From Solirubrobacterales bacterium (GTDB lineage Bacteria > Actinomycetota > Thermoleophilia > Solirubrobacterales > 70-9), in the NCBI GenBank assembly GCA_036276255.1, contig DASUPK010000050.1, positions 26,093-90,092 on the forward strand: a stretch of 64,000 nt of DNA. The letters run 5' to 3'. Of the stretch, positions 1,697-62,326 are shown in pieces. Each line of letters begins with the position of its first letter. The first letter of the stretch is position 1. A program made the position numbers and the translations under genes. The notes under the pieces are model-generated. The model made no database searches. It saw only the letters and a list, made by a program, of their open reading frames with translations, and was not told where the DNA came from.

Positions 1697-3222
1697 GCAA
1701 CCCGCTCGGCCCGGAGATCACCGAGACGCCGATGCAGCGCGACCGCGCGGTCACCATCTACGAGCGTTCGGTCGAGGGACGCCGCGCGGCGACCCTGCCC
1801 GAGTCCGGCGTGGAGGAGCGCCCGATCGAGGAGCTGATCCCGAAGAGCCTGTTGCGAGTGAAGGCGGCCGAGCTTCCCGAGATCGCGGAGCCCGAGATCG
1901 TCCGGCACTACAACCGGATCTCGCGGCGGAACTTCGACCTCGACACGGGCTTCTACCCGCTCGGTTCGTGCACGATGAAGCACAACCCGCGCCTCAACGA
2001 GCGGGTGGCCGCCCTGCCGGGCCACGCGCGGCTGCACCCGGCGCAGGAGCCGAAGCGCGCCCAGGGCGCCCTGGAGCTCATGTGGCTGCTCCAGCAGTCG
2101 CTGTCGGAGATCTGCGGCCTCCCTCACGTCAGCCTCCAGCCCTCGGCCGGCTCACACGGCGAGCTCGCCGGGCTGTTGCTCACCCGGGCCTACCAAGCCC
2201 ACCGGGGTGAGAGTCGGACCAAGGTGCTCACCCCGGACACCGCCCACGGCACCAACCCGGCCACGGTGACGATGGCCGGCTACGAGGTGGTGAAGCTCGC
2301 CTCCAACGAGAAGGGGGGCATCGACCTCGACGACCTGCGCGCGAAGGCCGGTGACGACACCGCCTGCCTGATGCTCACGAACCCCAACACGCTCGGGCTG
2401 TTCGACGAGAACATCGAGGAGATCGCCTCGATCGTGCACGAGGCCGGCGGCACGCTCTACTACGACGGCGCCAACCTGAACGCGATCATGGGCCACTCGC
2501 GGCCGGGTGACATGGGCTTCGACATCGTCCACGTCAACCTGCACAAGTCCTTCTCGCAGCCCCATGGCGGCGGCGGCCCGGGGGCCGGACCGATCGCCTG
2601 CTCGGACCGGATCGAGCCGTTCCTGCCCCGCCCCCAGGTGGTGCGCAGCGAGCCCCAGAACGGGGGAGAGCCGTCCTTCGATCTCGACTTCGACCGCCCG
2701 AAGTCGATCGGCCGCCTGCGGGGCTTCCAGGGCAACTTCGGCGTCTTCGTGCGCTCCTACGCCTACATCCTCAGCCTGGGCGGCGACGGCCTCCAGGAGG
2801 CCTCCGAGACCGCCGTGCTGAACGCCAACTACCTGCTCGCCAAGCTGAGTGAGGGGAAGGCCGGCAAGTACACGCCGGTCGCCTTCCAGAACCGCCCGAT
2901 GCACGAGTTCGTGCTCTCCGGAGCCCCGGCCAAGAAGGAGCTCGGCATCAAGACGCTCGATATCGCCAAGCGCCTGCTCGACCACGGCATGCACCCGCCC
3001 ACCGTCTACTTCCCGCTGCTGGTCGACGAGGCCCTGATGGTCGAGCCGACCGAGACCGAGACGCGCGAGACGCTCGACGCCTTCGCCGAGGCGATCGACG
3101 CGATTCTCGTCGAGGCCGAGGACGACCCCGCAGTTGCTCAGCAGGCCCCCTACACGACCCCGGTCCGCCGCCTCGACGAGGTCGCGGCGAACCGGAAGCC
3201 CGTCGTCCGCCAGCCCCTCTGA
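1693..3222 (+). CDS. gcvPB: glycine dehydrogenase (decarboxylating) subunit 2
   Basis: C-terminal ~510 aa of ORF 1069..3222. Start set at the in-frame GTG 1693 (GTGA overlap with gcvPA). FYPLGSCTMKHNP and PLP-lysine motif NLHKSFSQPHGGGGPG. The part upstream of 1693 is out-of-frame overlap with gcvPA. Confidence 0.95.
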   Translation: MSNPLGPEITETPMQRDRAVTIYERSVEGRRAATLPESGVEERPIEELIPKSLLRVKAAELPEIAEPEIVRHYNRISRRNFDLDTGFYPLGSCTMKHNPRLNERVAALPGHARLHPAQEPKRAQGALELMWLLQQSLSEICGLPHVSLQPSAGSHGELAGLLLTRAYQAHRGESRTKVLTPDTAHGTNPATVTMAGYEVVKLASNEKGGIDLDDLRAKAGDDTACLMLTNPNTLGLFDENIEEIASIVHEAGGTLYYDGANLNAIMGHSRPGDMGFDIVHVNLHKSFSQPHGGGGPGAGPIACSDRIEPFLPRPQVVRSEPQNGGEPSFDLDFDRPKSIGRLRGFQGNFGVFVRSYAYILSLGGDGLQEASETAVLNANYLLAKLSEGKAGKYTPVAFQNRPMHEFVLSGAPAKKELGIKTLDIAKRLLDHGMHPPTVYFPLLVDEALMVEPTETETRETLDAFAEAIDAILVEAEDDPAVAQQAPYTTPVRRLDEVAANRKPVVRQPL

Positions 3223-3883: not shown

Positions 3884-4795
3884 CTAGTCGGTCTCGAGCT
3901 CGCCGAGGTCGGGCAGCTTCTGCTTGGTGGAGAGCACCGGCTCGAACAGGTCGCCCTCCTTCTCGATCCGCTTGATCGCGGCCGGAATCTCGAAACGGAG
4001 TCTCTCGGCGCTCTTCTTGTTCTTTGCCGCCCGCTCGACCTCCCGCCAATGCAGCGGGATCGACACCGTCGGGTACTCGCGGGCCCGCAGCGAGTACACG
4101 GCGATCGTCGTCTTCTTCTGGTGGTTCTGGCTCCAGTCGACGAAGACCTTGCCGCGCCGATCGACCTTGGCCATCTTGGAGACGACCTCCTTCGGAGTCT
4201 GCTTCTCGAGCAGCTGGGCGACTGCCTTGGCGAACGGGCTCGTCTGCTCGTACGTCACCTTGGTGTTGAGCGGGAAGTAGACCTGCAGGCCCTTGCCGCC
4301 CGAGACCTTCGGGAACCCCTCGAGTCCGAACGCGTTGAATAGCTCCCTGACCCGCAGGGCGACCTTGCAGCACTCGACCAGGCCCGCGGGCTCGCCGGGG
4401 TCGAGGTCGAAGGCGAGCACCGTCGGCTGCTCCATGCGCTTCGATTTGGAGAGCGAGGGGTGGAGCTCCAGCGCCGCGAGCTGGGCCATCCAGATCAGCG
4501 TGGGGCGGTTCTCGCAGAGGCAGAAGTCGATCTCACCGGCGCGGCGATCGACGTAGATCGGGGTCGTCTTCACCCATTCGGGCCGATGCTTCGGGCAGTT
4601 CTTCTCGAAGAACGACGTCTGCGGCTTGCCCACTCCCTCGGGGAAGCGGCGGAGGGTCAGCGGCCGGCCCTTCAGGTGCGGAATGAGCAGGTCCGCGACC
4701 CGGGCGTAGTAGTCGATCACCTCCGCCTTGGTCGTCTTGGTCTTCGGGTAGAGGACCTTGTCGAGGTTGGTCAGCTTGACCTTGCGCCGACCAAT
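3884..4795 (-). CDS. ligD: NHEJ polymerase/primase (LigD PolDom, archaeo-eukaryotic primase fold), stand-alone
   Basis: ORF track 3884..4720. Motifs FDLDP and SGGKGLQVY are AEP catalytic motifs. The conserved N-terminal segment IGRRKVKLTNLDKVLYPKTKTTKAEVIDYY continues in frame upstream of GTG 4720 with no ATG/GTG/TTG. I place the start at in-frame ATT 4795. The canonical alternative is GTG 4720. Confidence 0.85.
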   Translation of the reverse strand: MGRRKVKLTNLDKVLYPKTKTTKAEVIDYYARVADLLIPHLKGRPLTLRRFPEGVGKPQTSFFEKNCPKHRPEWVKTTPIYVDRRAGEIDFCLCENRPTLIWMAQLAALELHPSLSKSKRMEQPTVLAFDLDPGEPAGLVECCKVALRVRELFNAFGLEGFPKVSGGKGLQVYFPLNTKVTYEQTSPFAKAVAQLLEKQTPKEVVSKMAKVDRRGKVFVDWSQNHQKKTTIAVYSLRAREYPTVSIPLHWREVERAAKNKKSAERLRFEIPAAIKRIEKEGDLFEPVLSTKQKLPDLGELETD

Positions 4796-10956: not shown

Positions 10957-11388
10957 GTGATGGCCGATCTCCACCCCGAGGCCCGCAAGCTGATCGAGTC
11001 AGGACGGCTCGCCCACATGGTCACGCTCAACCCTGACGGTGGCCCCCAGGTGAGCTGCGTCTGGGTCGGCTTGGACGGGGACGACATCGTGAGCGGGCAT
11101 TTGCCGCGCAACCAGAAGGTGAAGAACGTGGAGCGCGACGGGCGCGTGGCGATCTCGATCGAGACGGACACCGTCAGCGAAATGGGGCTGATCGAATACC
11201 TGGTCGTCCGCGGGACCGCGCGGGTTGAGGAGGGAGGCGCGGCGGAGTTGCTGCAGCGGCTCGCGCACACCTACCTCGGGCCGGACGTGAAGTTCCCGCC
11301 CATGGACGACCCGCCCGCCGGATACGTCATCCGGACCACTCCGGAGAAGGTCGGCGGGGTCGGGCCGTGGACGGGCAAGAGCGTCTAG
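10957..11388 (+). CDS. PPOX-class (pyridoxamine 5'-phosphate oxidase-like) probable F420-dependent enzyme
   Basis: 143 aa. LAHMVTLNPDGGPQVSCVWVGLDGDDIV...NVERDGRVAISI pattern of Rv1155-like split-barrel proteins. ATG 10960 is an alternative start. Confidence 0.78.
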   Translation: MMADLHPEARKLIESGRLAHMVTLNPDGGPQVSCVWVGLDGDDIVSGHLPRNQKVKNVERDGRVAISIETDTVSEMGLIEYLVVRGTARVEEGGAAELLQRLAHTYLGPDVKFPPMDDPPAGYVIRTTPEKVGGVGPWTGKSV

Positions 11389-11410
11389 CGGCCACCGGGC
11401 GAAGCCGGGC
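11385..11410 (+). repeat. collapsed short copy of the CTAGCGGCC...GCGAAGCC repeat family
   Basis: CTAGCGGCCACCGGGCGAAGCCGGGC. The family 5' end (CTAGCGGCCACC.GG) is fused directly to the 3' GCGAAGCCG motif. Its TAG is the stop codon of the PPOX gene. Confidence 0.5.
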
Positions 11411-26012: not shown

Positions 26013-27269
26013 ATGCAACAGCTTTCAGAGAACGAGTTCCTGTTCACCTCCGAATCCGTCACCGAGGGCCATCCGGACAAGGTCTGCGACCAGATCTCCG
26101 ACGGCGTCCTCGACGCCGTGATGGCCGAAGACCCCACCGGGCGGGTGGCCTGCGAGTGCCTGGTCAACACCGGGCTCGTGGTGGTCTCCGGCGAGATCAC
26201 GACCGAGACCTACGTGGACATCCCCTCGATCGCGCGCGAGACGATCCGCAAGATCGGCTACGACGATCCCCGCTACGGCTTCGACCACAAGGCCTGTGCA
26301 GTGCTCACCGCCATCGACGAGCAGTCGCCCGACATCGCTCAGGGTGTGGACAAGGGTCTCGAACAGCGCGAGGGCGACAGCTCCGACGAATTGGACTCGG
26401 CCGGCGCGGGCGACCAGGGGATGATGTTCGGCTACGCCAGCCGTGAGACGAAGGCGCTGATGCCGATGCCGATCCAGATCGCGCACCAGCTGGCCCGTCA
26501 GCTCGCCGAGGTCCGCAAGGCCGGCGTGGTCCCGTACCTCGGCCCGGACGGCAAGACCCAGGTCACCATCCGCTACGAGAACGACCGGCCCGCCGAGATC
26601 TCCAAGGTCCTGATCTCCACGCAGCATCGCGAGGAGGCCGGTGAGCAGATGATCCGCAACGACCTCTGGGAGCACGTGCTCGAGCCCGTGCTGCATACGG
26701 AGTACAAGGAGCTCTACACCGAGAAGGAGCTGCTCGCCAGCTTCCTTGTCAACCCGACCGGCAAGTTCGTGATCGGCGGCCCGGTCGGCGACGCCGGCCT
26801 TACGGGCCGGAAGATCATCGTCGACACCTACGGAGGCGCCGCCCGGCATGGCGGAGGCGCGTTCTCGGGCAAGGACCCGTCGAAGGTCGACCGCTCGGCC
26901 GCATACGCGGCTCGCTACGTGGCCAAGAACATCGTCGCCGCGGGCCTCGCAGACCGCTGCGAGATCCAGGTCGCCTACGCGATCGGCGTCGCGAGCCCGG
27001 TCTCGGTGATGGCGCAGACCTTCGGTACCGGGAAGGTCTCGGACTCCGAGATCGCCCGCCTCGTGCAGGAGAACTTCGACCTGCGTCCGGCCGCGTTCCG
27101 CCGCTACCTGGACCTGCACCGCCCGATCTTCCAGAAGACGGCGGCCTACGGCCACTTCGGCCGTGACGACTCCGACTTCACCTGGGAGCGGACGGACCGC
27201 GCGGACACGCTGCGCGAGGCCGCCGGCCTAGCGGCCGACAGGCCGGTCACTTCCGGAGCGGAGGCGTAA
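26013..27269 (+). CDS. metK: S-adenosylmethionine synthase (with 12-aa C-terminal extension read from a repeat element)
   Basis: 418 aa. [29 protein letters not shown]. The tail after ...EAAGL is encoded by repeat copy D. Confidence 0.96.
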
Positions 27270-27326
27270 GCCGAAGCGACTTGCGAGGGTCCGGCCGATT
27301 CGGCCGCGCCTGGTGGCGAAGCCGTC
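27228..27326 (+). repeat. interspersed structured repeat, copy D (full length, most diverged)
   Basis: CTAGCGGCCGACAGG...GCGGAGGCGTAAGCCGAAGCGACTTGCGAGGGTCCGGCCGATTCGGCCGCGCCTGGTGGCGAAGCCGTC. Aligns along its length with copy B (40340-40446). The 5' part lies inside the metK coding sequence. Confidence 0.7.
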
Positions 27327-32676: not shown

Positions 32677-33706
32677 TCGCGAGCGAGGCGAGCTCGAGCC
32701 CTTCCTGCGGCGGCTCGCCGCGCTCATCGGCTTGATCGTGGCGGTCCTCCTAGCGGGGAGCGTCGCGTACTCGTTGTCCCAGAACGTCTCCGTTTGGCAT
32801 GGCTTCCTCTTCTCCCTGGACACGGTGGCCACGGTCGGGTCCGCTCCGGAGCCGACTGACCTGCCCGGGCAACTCACCAAGGTCCTGCTGATCGTCCTGG
32901 GCGTGGGTACGCTCTTCTACGCCCTGGTGACGGTGACCGAGTTCTTCGTCGCCGGGCACCTGGGAGAGATTCTCGAGGAGCGCCGAACCCTGAAGAAGAT
33001 CGAAGACCTCAACGGCCACCACCTGATCTGCGGCTTCGGCCGGGTTGGGCGCCAGGTCGCGCGCGATCTTCAGACGGGCGGCGATCGCTTCGTGATCATC
33101 GACAGCCTCGACGAGAACCAGCACATCGCCGAGCAGATGGGTGCGCCCTTCCTGCAGGGCCGCCCCTCCGAGGACGAGATGCTGAAGGCGGCCGGCATCG
33201 AGCGCGCGATCTCCGTCCTCGCCTGCGTCGACTCCGATGCCGAGAACATCTTCACCTGCCTGACCGCACGCGAACTTCGATCAGACATCACGATCGTCGC
33301 GCGTGCGAGCGTCGAAGACTCGGAGAAGAAGCTCCTCCGCGCGGGAGCCGACCGGGTGATCTCCCCCTACAAGTCGAGCGGCGCGGAGATGGCCCGGCTG
33401 GCGCTCCAGCCGCAGGTCACCGGGGTTGTCGACGTCGCCCCCGAGTACCGGATGGAAGAGATCGACGTCAGCGAGGGCTGCCAGGCCGAGGGGATGACGG
33501 TCGGTCAGGTGCGCGGGACCACCTCGATCGCGGCGCTCCGCAACACCGACGGCAAGGTCCATCCCCAGCCGTCGTCGGACGCGGTGCTGCGCGCCGGCGA
33601 CGTCCTGGTCGCGATGGGAACCGTGGAGGCCCTGCGCAAGCTGGAGGCGATGTTCGTCCGGGGAACGGCGCGGAAGTCCGGGTCGGTGCTCGGGGACGTC
33701 GGCTAG
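32669..33706 (+). CDS. two-TM pore ion channel with RCK (TrkA-N/TrkA-C) domains, non-canonical selectivity filter
   Basis: ORF track 32732..33706. Pore region FSLDTVATVGSAP, Rossmann motif ICGFGRVGRQV, TrkA-C region. TM1 and the basic N-terminus (FLRRLAALIG) continue in frame upstream of TTG 32732. The proposed start is CTG 32669, 9 nt after GGAGG. The canonical alternative is 32732. Confidence 0.8.
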   Translation: MLSRERGELEPFLRRLAALIGLIVAVLLAGSVAYSLSQNVSVWHGFLFSLDTVATVGSAPEPTDLPGQLTKVLLIVLGVGTLFYALVTVTEFFVAGHLGEILEERRTLKKIEDLNGHHLICGFGRVGRQVARDLQTGGDRFVIIDSLDENQHIAEQMGAPFLQGRPSEDEMLKAAGIERAISVLACVDSDAENIFTCLTARELRSDITIVARASVEDSEKKLLRAGADRVISPYKSSGAEMARLALQPQVTGVVDVAPEYRMEEIDVSEGCQAEGMTVGQVRGTTSIAALRNTDGKVHPQPSSDAVLRAGDVLVAMGTVEALRKLEAMFVRGTARKSGSVLGDVG

Positions 33707-33779
33707 ACGGCTTCGCCATCAGATCGCGGCTACAAGCGGCCGCCCCCACATAAGTCGCTGCGGGCCTAGTGGCCGCTAG
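33703..33779 (-). repeat. interspersed structured repeat, copy A (short middle)
   Basis: Minus strand reads CTAGCGGCCACTAGGCCCGCAGCGACTTATGTGGGGGCGGCCGCTTGTAGCCGCGATCTGATGGCGAAGCCGTCTAG. It fills the whole gap between the stop codons of two convergent genes. Confidence 0.75.
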
Positions 33780-35215
33780 CCGGCCTCGTCGGCCGAGGCC
33801 AGCTGCAGCTCGATCTCCTCGGTCGACCCGGGTTCGACCCGGTGCTCCAGCGGGGTCAGGGGCTGGCGGTAGAGCCAGTAGAGGACCGAGCAGAGCAGCG
33901 CCGCGGCGCCGAGGTAGCCGATGACGACACGGGTGACGTCATTGGAGACGATCGGAACCACGATCCAGACTATGAAGGCGGTCGCGCACCCGATCCAGCA
34001 GAACGACGCGCGACGCACCTGGCCGCGCGCTAGCGCTGCCTGGTTGAGCGTCGCGGCGGACAGGTAGAGCCCCATGCCGATCGCCACGACGACCAGGTCG
34101 CCCCGGTTGTAGTCGTGCTTCTTGCCGAAGGCGATCTGCATCAGCTCTGGTCCCGCGACCAGCATGGCGAGCGTGACCAGCCCGGCAAAGCCGGCGATCG
34201 CCAGCAGGGTCACGCGGATGGAGGCGCGGAAGTCCTTCTCCTCGCCGCGCGAGCCCAGGGTCGTGAGGTGGGGGAGGAGGCTGGTCTGCACCGCTTGGAA
34301 GAGCTGCAGGGGCGCCCTGGCGATCATCAGCACGTTGAAGATGTACCCCGCTGCGGCCGCGCCCGCGGTCGCCTTGGTGCTCAGGATCCCGGCGTTCATC
34401 AGGGTCTGCTCGCTGAGCATGATCAGGAACACCCCTCCCGCGAACCGGCCGCCTCGAGCCAGGGTGAATTCGTCCGCCGGTGCCGCCGGGGCGGCCGCCG
34501 GCGAGGCCTCCTCAGGCCGGCCTTCGCCGGGAGTTCCTTCGGAGGCCTCCCCGCCGTCCGCCCCTGCGGGGGCGGCGGAACCGAATCGCCGGAAGAAGGC
34601 GAACGGGACGACGATCAGGGAGAGCGTGGGGGCTGCGACGATGCCGAGGGCGACGACGGTTTGGCCTGATGCCAATCCGAGGGCCACGGCGAACGGGAAG
34701 GCCGTCCGCGCGATGGATTCGCTGATGATCTGCAGCGCATAGATGGTCAGGCGATGGCTGCCCGCGAGAAATCCGCGGGCGAAGTAGCTCGCCCCGTAGG
34801 CCGTGACCGCCGCCACGCCGATCCAATACAGCGTCGCGTTGCCGTCCAGCAGGTTGTCCTGGATCGGCGTGCGGAGGGCGAGCGCGACGACGTCGAAGGC
34901 GATCGCAACCGACAGCTGGATCGTGGCCGCGACCCGAACGGTGTGCGTGATCGGCACGTCGTGAGCGAGGTTCTCGGAGATCGTCCGCGAGAGGAGCTGC
35001 TCCACTGGCCGCTGCAGGACCGAGACGACGATGAAGACCGCCGACCAGAGCACGGCGATCTGCCCGTACTGGTCCTTCGACAGCTCGTGCGAGGCGATCG
35101 CGAAGTAGAGGTAGGTGATCAGCCCCGTCAGGCCGACACCGATCGACAGCAGGCTGGCGCGGCGCCCGTAGCTGCGCGCCTCGTCCGTCGCCTGCACCCG
35201 TCCCACTCTCGGCAT
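33776..35215 (-). CDS. polysaccharide/oligosaccharide flippase-like polytopic membrane protein (Wzx/MOP superfamily)
   Basis: ATG 35215 within ORF 33776..35305. About 12-14 TM helices and a Pro/Ala/Gly/Glu-rich central loop. Family assignment is by overall architecture only. The part upstream of 35215 has low GC3 and looks non-coding. Confidence 0.7.
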   Translation of the reverse strand: MPRVGRVQATDEARSYGRRASLLSIGVGLTGLITYLYFAIASHELSKDQYGQIAVLWSAVFIVVSVLQRPVEQLLSRTISENLAHDVPITHTVRVAATIQLSVAIAFDVVALALRTPIQDNLLDGNATLYWIGVAAVTAYGASYFARGFLAGSHRLTIYALQIISESIARTAFPFAVALGLASGQTVVALGIVAAPTLSLIVVPFAFFRRFGSAAPAGADGGEASEGTPGEGRPEEASPAAAPAAPADEFTLARGGRFAGGVFLIMLSEQTLMNAGILSTKATAGAAAAGYIFNVLMIARAPLQLFQAVQTSLLPHLTTLGSRGEEKDFRASIRVTLLAIAGFAGLVTLAMLVAGPELMQIAFGKKHDYNRGDLVVVAIGMGLYLSAATLNQAALARGQVRRASFCWIGCATAFIVWIVVPIVSNDVTRVVIGYLGAAALLCSVLYWLYRQPLTPLEHRVEPGSTEEIELQLASADEAG

Positions 35216-35278
35216 GACGCGGAACACTACGGGCAAGCCTCGATTGCGAATTTGATGTCCCTTAACCGAGGCTGGGCG

Positions 35279-35284
35279 TACAAT
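35279..35284 (+). promoter_or_regulatory. -10-like box TACAAT in low-GC spacer upstream of ribD
   Basis: TACAAT at 35279-35284 in the divergent flippase/ribD spacer. No convincing -35 at 16-18 nt. Confidence 0.25.
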
Positions 35285-35341
35285 CCTGGCTGACTGACCA
35301 GTCAATCAATCGAGCTCGGCCCAACCACCAAGGAGGCGAGC

Positions 35342-40147: not shown

Positions 40148-40342
40148 ATGGCCAAGGTCTGTCACAGCTGCGGCAAGCGTCCCGCGTTCGGGAACTCACG
40201 AAGCCACTCGATGGTCGCCACCCGGAGGCGCTTCAACCCGAACCTGCAGAAGGTGCGGATCCAGGAGCCCGGCGGCGGGACCGCGCGCGTGTACGTCTGC
40301 ACGCGATGCCTGAAGTCGAACAAGGTGACCAAGGCCGCGTAG
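40148..40342 (+). CDS. rpmB: 50S ribosomal protein L28 (Cys-containing, zinc-binding type)
   Basis: ATG 40148 within ORF 39956..40342. [36 protein letters not shown]...CTRCLK. Confidence 0.93.
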
Positions 40343-40446
40343 CGGCCACCAGGGCGCTCTCCTCAGGTGCGGAGGGCAAAGCCCGGAGCGGCTTATGATG
40401 GGCGGCCGCTTGTGGCCGCGATCTGATGGCGAAGCCGTCTGCCTAG
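40340..40446 (+). repeat. interspersed structured repeat, copy B (full length)
   Basis: TAGCGGCCACCAGGGCGC...GCGGAGGGCAAAGCCCGGAGCGGCTTATGATGGGCGGCCGCTTGTGGCCGCGATCTGATGGCGAAGCCGTCTGCCTAG. Starts with the rpmB stop codon. Confidence 0.75.
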
Positions 40447-47465: not shown

Positions 47466-47933
47466 ATGGACGTTCTAGTACTCATCGACAAGCTCGACGA
47501 TCTGGTCCACAACGCGCGGCCCGTGCCGCTCACGGATCAGGTGCGCGTCGATCGCGAGGAGATCTACGACCTCCTCGACCAGATGCGCGCCACGATCCCT
47601 GAGGAGATCAAGCAGGCCCGCTGGATCGTCAAGGAGCGCCAGGAGATGCTCGCCGAGGCGAAGCGCGAGGCCGAGCGGATCGTCAAGGAGGCCCGCGAGC
47701 AGCAGGCCCGCCTCGTCGCGAACGAGGAGATCACGCGTCAGGCCGAGCGAGCCGCCGAGGAGATCGTCGAGGAGGCCCGGGAGCGCGAGCGGGAGATCCG
47801 CCTCGGCGCCGAGGACTACGCCGACGACATCCTCTCGACGCTCGAGGTCAACCTCCAGAAGTTCCTGCAGGCCGTGCAGCGAGGCCGCGACCGGCTTCAG
47901 GGCCGCGAGCGCGAGCCGTCAGAGATTGGCTAG
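47466..47933 (+). CDS. conserved coiled-coil protein (ATP-synthase-b/DivIVA-like heptads), function unknown
   Basis: 155 aa. Highly charged E/R/K/A-rich helix. A similar gene follows coaD in actinobacterial synteny (from memory). Confidence 0.6.
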   Translation: MDVLVLIDKLDDLVHNARPVPLTDQVRVDREEIYDLLDQMRATIPEEIKQARWIVKERQEMLAEAKREAERIVKEAREQQARLVANEEITRQAERAAEEIVEEAREREREIRLGAEDYADDILSTLEVNLQKFLQAVQRGRDRLQGREREPSEIG

Positions 47934-48031
47934 CGGCCACCAGGCCGCAGTAATCGAAGCGGCGGCGTAGCCGCCGCGCCTGACGTGGGCGGCCGCTTGT
48001 GGCCGCGACTTGATGGCGAAGCCGTCACTAG
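47931..48031 (+). repeat. interspersed structured repeat, copy C (full length)
   Basis: TAGCGGCCACCAGGCCGC...GCGGCGGCGTAGCCGCCGC...GTGGGCGGCCGCTTGTGGCCGCGACTTGATGGCGAAGCCGTCACTAG. Starts with the stop codon of the coiled-coil gene. Confidence 0.75.
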
Positions 48032-53350: not shown

Positions 53351-53423
53351 ACGGCGGCCACAAACACCGCCGCCGGATCTACGGTCACAGGCTGCGCCTG
53401 TGACCGGCTACCATGCGCCGCCG

Positions 53424-61724: not shown

Positions 61725-61744
61725 CTCGATCGCTGTCCTAGCCG

Positions 61745-62326
61745 CTAGAACGCGAGCAGCGAGAAGGTCCGGTTGTCGACCACGTTGCCCCCGGCGTTGT
61801 GGACGATCACTTGGAACACGTTCTCTCCCGGGATCGGCGACGGATCCGCGAGCACATAGTTGACGTAGCCATCGGCGCCGACCATCGTCGCCTGCGCAGA
61901 CCCGGAGGCGTCCGGACCGCTGTTGCCCGCGAAGCGGACGAAGTACTGGCCCTGGGCGAGCCGCTCGAGCTGCACCGAGCTCGTCGTGTTGCCGGGCCGG
62001 AAGCAGTTGAAGCCCGGCACGTCGGTGAAGTTCGTGTTGCTGGCGCCTGTCGTGTTGACGACTACGGTCGCCTTGATCCCACCGGCGCTGCAGAAGCGCT
62101 GGAAGCCGGGGGCGGGCGTCCCCCCGAACTTCGCCGCGTTCCCCGCGCTCGCCACGTTCAGCCCCTGGGCCTGCTTCGAGATCTCCTGATCCGCGATCGC
62201 CCGGACCTTCCTCTTGTCCTTGCCCTTGAGCGCGGCGTAGCCGACGCCCCCCAGGGCGACGAACAGGGCCACGCAGGCAACGATCAGCGCAGGGCTGGGC
62301 AGCAGCCCTCGAACGAGCTTCCTCAT
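61745..62326 (-). CDS. secreted/membrane-anchored hypothetical protein
   Basis: 193 aa. ATG is preceded by AGAGAGGAA. N-terminal anchor ALIVACVALFVALGGVGYAALKGKDKRKV, then a Gly/Asn/Thr-rich domain. High GC3. Confidence 0.6.
   Translation of the reverse strand: MRKLVRGLLPSPALIVACVALFVALGGVGYAALKGKDKRKVRAIADQEISKQAQGLNVASAGNAAKFGGTPAPGFQRFCSAGGIKATVVVNTTGASNTNFTDVPGFNCFRPGNTTSSVQLERLAQGQYFVRFAGNSGPDASGSAQATMVGADGYVNYVLADPSPIPGENVFQVIVHNAGGNVVDNRTFSLLAF

Follow-up and report, generated by a model that had tools for sequence, protein, structure and literature searches.

A dispersed palindromic repeat associated with amber stop codons occupies a stop-to-stop gap between convergent genes in a Solirubrobacterales genome

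How do two convergent genes come to be separated by a gap that runs exactly from one stop codon to the other? The question is raised by a 77-nt stretch (33703-33779) of a Solirubrobacterales contig, DASUPK010000050.1, of which we analysed 64,000 nt, hereafter the window. The stretch, cggCTAGacggcttcgcc...gtggccgCTAGccgg, has cggCTAGacggc at 33703-33706 and gccgCTAGccgg at 33776-33779, and the coordinates, both TAG stops and the terminal CTAGs described in a first-pass annotation agree with the sequence and with the ends of the open reading frames (ORFs); Pfam likewise upholds its labels for the two genes, an RCK channel gene (TrkA_N/TrkA_C) and a flippase-like gene (Polysacc_synt). CTAG is approximately twofold depleted in the window, with 37 occurrences against 80 expected from dinucleotide shuffles, many of them at gene ends, and three CTAGs inside 77 nt are therefore conspicuous. 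TAGCGGCY occurs 10 times where 2.8 are expected, a number reached in none of 100 shuffles; the five TAG stops followed by CGGC(C/T) that had been listed earlier are all real, with a TAG stop at 257-259 and an out-of-frame TAG at 27229 to be added. The first-pass annotation had proposed a MITE (miniature inverted-repeat transposable element) that targets TA or CTAG, with an RNA function at the 3′ end as a fallback. Our analysis points elsewhere, with a probability that we put at roughly 0.6: the stretch holds a decayed member, copy A, of a non-autonomous, strand-specific palindromic repeat of about 100 nt, which belongs to Solirubrobacterales and resembles repetitive extragenic palindromic (REP) sequences or the palindrome-associated transposable elements (PATEs) of the IS200/IS605 type.

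A pattern scan (GGCCGCGN{2,4}TGRTGGCGAAGCCGTC) over one genome per prokaryotic species gave at least 118 loci, and all counts for the family rest on these matches listed. About 100 of the loci come from Solirubrobacterales metagenome-assembled genomes (MAGs) that represent approximately 30 species, while the rest are chance matches in coding sequences of other phyla. A covariance model built from 59 full copies was run on the window and on the loci, where it found 95 + 16, that is at least 111, copies. Roughly 14 of the copies lie outside the positions selected by the pattern, from which we extrapolate to a copy number of the order of 10^2 per genome. On the sense strand, by which we mean the strand where the upstream gene's TAG stop begins the element, the family has the consensus TAG-CGGCCACCAGGCCGCTCCAC...GTGGGGCGGCCGCTTGTGGCCGC-GATCT-GATGGCGAAGCCGTC (in full, about 100 nt: TAG CGGCCACCAGGCCGCTCCACTTTGGAGCGGAGGGCGAAGCCCGTAGCGACTTATGTGGGGCGGCCGCTTGTGGCCGCGATCTGATGGCGAAGCCGTC), with TAG-CGGCCACC at the 5′ end and GGCGAAGCCGTC at the 3′ end. 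The window contains four copies (A, B, C and D) and two probable remnants: a 33-nt core of the repeat is matched three times with 0 matches expected, and an inverted-repeat scan pairs 33705-33745 with 40400-40440 (98%) and with 47987-48026 (93%). At gathering thresholds Rfam 15 has no match in the whole window, and around copy A only chance-level hits appear at E values up to 10.

The link between placement and stop codons that had been suspected from this one locus extends to the family. Among 101 copies with enough flanking sequence for a tally, 64 use the TAG of the element as in-frame stop for a long upstream ORF with high GC content at third codon positions (GC3); a TAA stop lies one base earlier (TAA|GCGG) in 5, the ORF enters the element and ends inside it in 16, and a gene end is not near in 16. 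The stop codon of a convergent gene overlaps the last 1-2 nt of 27 copies (CTA in 14, TCA in 13). These overlaps can be explained without any duplication, since the antisense strand of the element begins with GAC and a flanking TA or T thus completes TAG or TGA. The convergent stop starts at -1, as it does at copy A, in 14 family copies, and 18 of the 101 lie exactly from stop to stop, so that the arrangement seen at copy A is a recurrent one. An automated count called a stop 2-60 nt upstream of the element in no copy; two exceptions, L044 and L133 (L numbers label the compared loci and contigs), were noted by eye.

Orientation is fixed, with the TAG end always toward the upstream gene. The TAG head is present in 70 of 95 copies (66 of the 83 with unique flanks, on which the flank statistics are based) and is kept even where it is not a stop, as in copy D, L031 and L112, which makes it part of the element or of a flank that the element requires. 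The base that precedes it (C 46, G 23, T 11, A 3 in the 83 copies) behaves like the third position of a codon, with the 3-nt periodicity of coding sequence. A recoding signal for pyrrolysine or readthrough was rejected as the principal explanation because the TAG is conserved out of frame (copy D, L031) or away from gene ends (L112). For copies B and C and many co-directional copies, the nearby CTAG is flanking sequence that overlaps a -10-like TAGNNT box of the next gene, and the box is also present in L032, the single empty allele checked for it. By eye, downstream promoters of this clade seem to use TAGNNT -10 boxes more generally (TAGGAT, TAGACT, TAGTCT, TAGGCT). Two further candidates were discarded: the 3′ block as a promoter -35 element, given its spacing (by eye) of 12-13 or 26 nt to the -10-like boxes, and an attC or integron site, given that RYYYAAC/GTTRRRY cores are lacking and that the flanking genes are housekeeping genes (rpmB, metK).

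Copy A is a decayed and shortened family member, not the reference form. Its sense strand, which is the minus strand of the window, reads TAGCGGCCACTAGGCC...GGCCGCTTGTAGCCGCGATCTGATGGCGAAGCCGTC; the orthologous site in L073 holds a full 100-nt copy, compared with which copy A is short by about 27 nt in the middle. Site A thus presents a size series of 100 nt (L073), 73 nt (the window and L120, a relative with 97.6% identity) and 40 nt (L119). The 40-nt form (TAGCGGCC|GCTYGTGGCCGC...) is also present at unrelated loci, and slippage between the internal GCGGCC repeats of the element can produce it.

Comparison of orthologous sites shows mobility and presence/absence polymorphism, bearing out the earlier suggestion of a dispersed multi-copy element with insertion polymorphism. 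The cleanest filled and empty pair is L079 and L030, whose flanks are 89% identical. In L030, two convergent ORFs meet directly as TAG|CTA, their stops lying at 3145-3147 and 3148-3150, and in L079 exactly 96 nt (CGGCC...GCCGT) stand between the same stops (4250-4252 and 4349-4351), with zero duplicated bases. The TA or CTAG duplication anticipated by the first-pass annotation is thus absent from this 96-nt insertion. By analogy with L030, an unoccupied copy A site would be expected to read ...GGC TAG CTA GCC.... Elsewhere, site C is empty in L066, L131, L132 and L136, and copy B is missing from L125, whose sequence upstream of site B matches the window at 99.8% identity, while L126-L128 from the same study carry it. 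Two other length polymorphisms were seen during these comparisons. At L059:200-334, a site orthologous to the copy in L015, a 19-nt tandem duplication (ACGCCGATCTGCCCGACTAG twice) includes the stop codon, and L120:17338-18615, orthologous to about 46338 of the window, holds a 425-aa DUF222/HNH endonuclease gene between recG and rsmD that the window does not have and that is a separate mobile insertion polymorphism.

For the family as a whole, the junctions also speak about the MITE proposal, in which an element derived from IS630/Tc1-mariner inserts at TA (CTAG), duplicates TA and thereby supplies TA-G stops on both sides. Copy A and 13 others do have TA on both sides, so that TA[G...C]TA gives TAG on both strands, but TA follows GCCGTC directly in only 18 of 83 copies, essentially those with a convergent stop there (14 of them with TAG at -1), and a search for target-site duplications of 2-5 nt at offsets of -2 to +3 (5′) and -3 to +2 (3′) in the 83 copies found none of any length or offset above shuffled flanks. 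The L022/L024 pair fits X-TA-[element]-TA-Y against X-TA-Y in length if two substitutions are allowed; the TAGCTA of L030 could be read as an excision footprint, TA-G..C-TA, but both stops are adjacent and intact there, which is simpler as an unoccupied site. The weak terminal inverted repeat noted earlier does exist in copy A (CTAGACGGC against the reverse complement CTAGCGGC), although with some 5 matching bases it is not a trait of the family: the ends GCGGCCACC... and ...GCCGTC likewise match over about 5 bases when inverted, real terminal inverted repeats (TIRs) are absent, and the palindrome is internal. The 5′ end is conserved as TAG, not as CTAG or GTAG, and conservation at the 3′ end stops with GCCGTC. 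The fixed orientation to the upstream gene is not explained by a palindromic TA or CTAG target, and no DDE transposase was seen beside any copy, although no DDE motif or profile search was run. We consider an IS630-type origin very improbable; from the original proposal, mobility and the stop-linked placement stand, whereas TA duplication, TIRs and a conserved CTAG are not supported.

The fold, which covariation and a G·U excess on the sense strand support, is the family's conserved feature. RNAalifold gave three helices, namely P1 (GCGGCCAC / GUGGCCGC), the base of P2 (GGCCGC / GCGGCC) and P4 (GAUGGC-GAA-GCCGUC), to which we added an extension of P2 (UCCAC / GUGGG) and P3 (GCGgaGGGC-GAA-GCCCguaGC). 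The overall structure is a long three-part hairpin (P1-P3), a GAUCU linker and the small 3′ hairpin P4, with conserved unpaired blocks GGAGCG, AGCGACUUAUG and GAUCU. Paired columns are compatible in 87.7% of cells, versus 28-56% when the partners are slid by 1-3 columns, and none of 500 shuffles matches the real alignment on any measure of pairing. Both sides vary in fifteen pairs, among them the P3 pair 49/56, with GC in 30 copies and CG in 21. P4 is invariant and 100% paired in 59 copies, but the search pattern largely dictates this. In nearly all copies the P3 loop is C-GNA-G (GAA, GTA, GCA, GGA), and beneath it lie tandem G·A/A·G pairs that are replaced by Watson-Crick pairs in a subset of copies. 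Trinucleotide loops of the GNA type give rise to very stable mini-hairpins in DNA, for instance d(GCGAAGC).

The two strands are not equivalent. The sense strand has 207 G·T pairs against 45 A·C mismatches, and the four window copies all fold better on the sense than on the antisense strand, by 1.3-8.3 kcal/mol (-32.2/-30.9, -53/-45.5, -57/-55.2 and -52.1/-43.8 kcal/mol). For both these reasons, selection acts on a single strand, and the asymmetry would suit an RNA made as the upstream gene's 3′ end as well as a single-stranded DNA intermediate of the sense strand. The element does not look like an intrinsic (Rho-independent) terminator: the hairpins are strong, at -32 to -57 kcal/mol, but column counts give no hint of a T-run, with T in at most 33 of 83 copies at every position from +1 to +15 past the element.

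Could the element primarily be an RNA motif with a function of its own (termination, mRNA stabilisation or a signal coupled to UAG termination) that is kept by selection, with its mobility historical or due to recombination between copies? The fallback role at the 3′ end that the first-pass annotation had mentioned fits the covariation and the strand asymmetry, while its functional steps remain conjectural. The covariation together with the G·U excess on the transcribed strand, the conserved unpaired blocks, and a location at the ends of transcription units, often just ahead of a -10-like TAGNNT box, would all be expected of such a motif, and orthologous copies are kept where synonymous positions are near saturation. 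Identity between orthologous copies is 0.82-0.95, while the flanking genes reach 0.61-0.70 at third codon positions; the difference suggests constraint or homogenisation. Base-pair differences between orthologs divide into 17 that are compensated, 26 that are one-sided but still pair, and 68 that are unpaired in one copy, and the 68 set against the 17 speak against such a motif. Turnover is fast at sites outside the match-based selection (losses at site C, the remnants at 11386 and 53351, and a decayed copy B in L121), and rapid loss or decay at these unbiased sites tells against a motif under selection. Among the site polymorphisms, the one at site B is compatible with it in resembling allele exchange, but the L112 dimer lies antisense to its neighbouring genes, no Rfam family matches, and the hairpin has no U-tract behind it. 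On balance we find a primarily functional RNA unlikely.

A related proposal would make the element a transposon or recombination-spread module that recognises amber stops in the sense orientation and whose RNA form is coupled to UAG termination. We hold this to be a speculative and rather improbable account. If it were true, a hairpin that starts within the ribosome footprint could set the stability of the mRNA 3′ end or ribosome release, and the repeat would be a lineage-wide, stop-codon-addressed control of 3′ ends, not junk, implying an undescribed single-strand transposase with a TAG guide or target.

We therefore return to the non-autonomous palindromic repeat, for which insertion 3′ of TAG without duplication is the best-supported reading of the junction, based on one clean case and the family statistics. 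Single-strand HUH (Y1) transposases insert one strand 3′ of a short sequence without duplication, and IS630/Tc1 elements do not. Spread, now or formerly, would then have proceeded by insertion of one strand immediately 3′ of TAG with no target duplication. TAG is scarce inside the genes of a 70% GC genome and intragenic insertions would be purged, so that copies would build up on amber stops; between abutting convergent genes, such a copy would become the entire intergenic gap and give the stop-to-stop picture. The element would presumably be transcribed as the 3′ end of the upstream mRNA, where a hairpin of about -50 kcal/mol that begins at the stop codon and has no U-run is most likely a 3′-end barrier or terminator-like insulator, as described for REPs. 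So near the stop, it could also disturb terminating ribosomes, as for REPs of Escherichia coli; in that species REPs within 15 nt of a stop lower translation, according to work cited in PMC12306157.

Several observations weigh against this reading. Only one filled and empty pair, L079/L030, is clean: the L022/L024 pair is compatible in length with TA duplication and is not a simple insertion, and in this pair and at L005, L010 and L045 versus L032, as at sites B and C, the empty allele holds 9-30 nt of other sequence. At site B, the last sense codon also changes (GCG versus GCC) and the spacer allele is common to more distant relatives, a pattern that suggests alleles swapped by homologous recombination and not fresh transposition. 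Because an exact 26-nt match was the basis for choosing loci, the conservation figures are overstated. The element's own TAA or TAG head lies 1 nt past the resident stop in L133 and L044, and the head may thus travel with the element rather than be the target. A search of six-frame ORFs in the at least 118 loci and the window for RAYT motifs (YxxxNP together with WQxRFxD or HxHLL), the sole HUH signatures searched, found none. No transposase of any kind was found in the approximately 1 Mb of 8-kb blocks around the copies, where no DDE motif or profile search was run; judged by translation, the ORFs between paired copies in L113 and L105 look unlike transposases and resemble a B12-binding mutase subunit and a PucR-like regulator. 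Nor does any copy in this 1 Mb have its halves split by a gene, a search for separated halves having turned up only tandem dimers and one stub, in L082. Inverted doublets are absent among the family copies, whose only clusters are head-to-tail dimers, found at five loci and repeating every 85-90 nt. Finally, the lack of a U-run behind the hairpin counts against the role proposed for it at 3′ ends.

Structural variants of the repeat were found at several loci. A subfamily of 119-134 nt (Table 1) carries an extra module of about 30 nt, (A/G)TGCGAGGG-hairpin-ACCCGTTTAGTG, within the P3 region, and this shows modular evolution of the repeat. The stub at L082:694-710 (minus strand) is an orphan 5′ end (TAG CGGCCACCAGGCCGC) exactly between two convergent stops and folds by itself into a 6-bp hairpin, GCGGCC-ACCA-GGCCGC; deletion may have left it as its last stage, or it may represent a minimal unit.

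Within the window, alignment of copies A, B and C showed a conserved 40-nt block and a conserved distal block around a variable middle, and nhmmer and the covariance model added only copy D at significant scores, plus weak remnants (Table 1). Copy B lies 31 nt upstream of a Dak2/FakA-like gene and has orthologous copies in L115, L044 and L066. Copy C, with a -10-like TAGTCT box 2 nt past its end, is shared with L121 and, in a short form, with L119. The 155-aa protein encoded upstream of copy C (47466-47933) has no Pfam match and an internal 84-nt repeat (47662 and 47746), and its exact sequence recurs in more than 1400 blocks of the contig collection, from many species and with differing neighbours, which is unusual conservation for an unnamed protein. 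At copy D, metK (26013..27269) runs 13 codons into the element and reaches a TAA stop in the P3 hairpin loop; the Pfam C-terminal domain of MetK ends at residue 393 of 418, and the final residues beyond it are encoded by the repeat. The L031 ortholog shows the same metK read-through, ending there in TAG. A convergent bPH_2 gene has its TGA stop overlapping the last 2 nt of copy D, and the copy is invariant among near-identical strains.

Table 1. Coordinates of copy A, its flanking genes, and further copies, probable remnants and subfamily members of the repeat. Positions refer to the window unless a locus label is given.
Feature	Position	Strand	Remarks
TrkA_N/TrkA_C (RCK-type) gene	32732..33706	+	Pfam; TAG stop 33704-33706
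TrkA/RCK gene TAG stop	33704..33706	+	G complementary to the final base (C) of copy A
Polysacc_synt (Wzx flippase family) gene	33776..35305	-	Pfam; TAG stop read from 33778 to 33776
Copy A, internally deleted, 73 nt	33706..33778	-	Covariance model 56 bits, E 5e-8
TAG head of copy A, stop of Polysacc_synt gene	33776..33778	-	Upstream frame open for 509 codons, GC3 0.93
3′ hairpin P4 of copy A, GAUGGC-GAA-GCCGUC	33706..33720	-	P4 folds in every copy
Copy B, full length, 100 nt	40340..40439	+	100 bits; begins on TAG stop of rpmB (L28)
Copy C, 96 nt	47931..48026	+	84 bits; begins on TAG stop of highly conserved 155-aa gene
Copy D, diverged, 98 nt	27229..27326	+	72 bits; TAG out of frame
Probable remnant, TAGCGGCCACCGGGCGAAGCCGGG	11386..11409	+	On TAG stop of PNPOx-family gene; weak match, 9.6 bits
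Probable remnant, reversed orientation	53351..53410	-	Between yceD stop and rpmF start; weak, 16.8 bits, E 0.33
119-134-nt subfamily member	L001:3410-3540		
119-134-nt subfamily member	L097:3016-3145		
119-134-nt subfamily member	L041:6414-6547		
119-134-nt subfamily member	L050:6374-6501		
119-134-nt subfamily member	L060:1600-1726		
119-134-nt subfamily member	L051:117-243		

Relatives support both probable remnants. The site orthologous to 11386 in L093 holds a short copy that matches the 26-nt 3′ pattern of the family, and the ortholog of 53351..53410, which reads ACGGCGGCCACAAACACCGCCGCC ... GCTA on the plus strand of the window, is the head-to-tail tandem dimer of L112. A perfect 10-bp hairpin at 53383-53405 (GGTCACAGGC-TGC-GCCTGTGACC), between yceD and rpmF, is unrelated to the repeat family and may act as a terminator or, ahead of rpmF, as a regulatory hairpin. 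Two other TAG stops with CGGCC or CGGCT next to them, those of the gene ending at 259 (257-264) and of the minus-strand gene 61745..62326 (61740-61747), are followed by no match to the model at E values up to 10, and may be worn-down remnants or chance.

The analysis adds a repeat family that is described neither in Rfam 15 nor in the literature searched in full text, for an order of soil actinobacteria that is abundant and poorly studied; a literature search for repeats of Solirubrobacter or Conexibacter returned nothing relevant. The family accounts for several annotation oddities, including exact stop-to-stop gaps, gene tails encoded by a repeat (the last 13 codons of metK) and gene ends that vary between strains, and it provides a polymorphic marker at the strain level. 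With about two thirds of its copies exactly on a stop, it is also a data set for asking whether REP-like elements choose stops or are filtered onto them.

No new principle is involved, as REP heads that provide TAG stops and effects of stop-proximal REPs on translation have both been published. Flanking ORFs often owe their TAG stop to the termini of GTAG REPs, which include the SMAG repeats of Stenotrophomonas and enterobacterial REPs (Di Nocera, De Gregorio & Rocco 2013, PMC3733652). Like the repeat described here, GTAG REPs combine a TAG-containing head with an adjacent GC-rich palindrome, reach high copy numbers in extragenic positions, mostly 3′ of genes and between both unidirectional and convergent ORFs, have neither TIRs nor target duplications, and have been given proposed roles as RNA hairpins. 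This raises the possibility that our family is a canonical REP/REPIN family, a member of the GTAG-tagged superfamily mobilised by RAYT, which we judge doubtful. Conservation does not extend to the G of GTAG (of 83 copies, 23 have G at -1 and 46 have C), and the unit is a compound one of 100 nt with four helices (three stacked, plus a second hairpin), in contrast to stem-loops of 20-40 bp. The inverted doublets of REPINs and bacterial interspersed mosaic elements (BIMEs) are missing, and head-to-tail dimers, the only ones seen here, are rare in REPs (PMC3733652). RAYT motifs are absent from the roughly 1 Mb around the copies, and the host is an order of the actinobacterial class Thermoleophilia that the searched literature does not mention.

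The PATEs of IS200/IS605 share with our repeat asymmetric ends that each bear a hairpin (here P1-P3 at the 5′ and P4 at the 3′ terminus), strand specificity, a fixed short sequence in the 5′ flank (here TAG), a single orientation, and a lack of TIRs and duplications, with which the 96-nt insertion is consistent; the hairpin loops also fit GNA. The likeness is limited by the search of about 1 Mb, in which no TnpA/TnpB partner with matching ends was found (RAYT motifs being the sole HUH signatures used), by the two copies that keep their own head 1 nt past a resident stop, unexpected if the flank alone were the target, and by several filled and empty pairs that are not simple insertions. IS630/Tc1 MITEs and other TA-duplicating MITEs, such as the Correia elements of Neisseria, are similarly about 100 nt long, foldable, intergenic and co-transcribed, and some copies here have TA beside both ends; unlike them, our family has no terminal inverted repeats, no family-wide TA duplication and a fixed orientation. 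Among actinobacteria, the mycobacterial interspersed repetitive units (MIRUs) are intergenic repeats of 40-100 bp whose ends overlap flanking stops or starts and which form head-to-tail tandems. MIRUs occur chiefly as tandem arrays within operons and do not form long palindromes, whereas the Solirubrobacterales family consists mostly of single units whose conserved feature is the fold.

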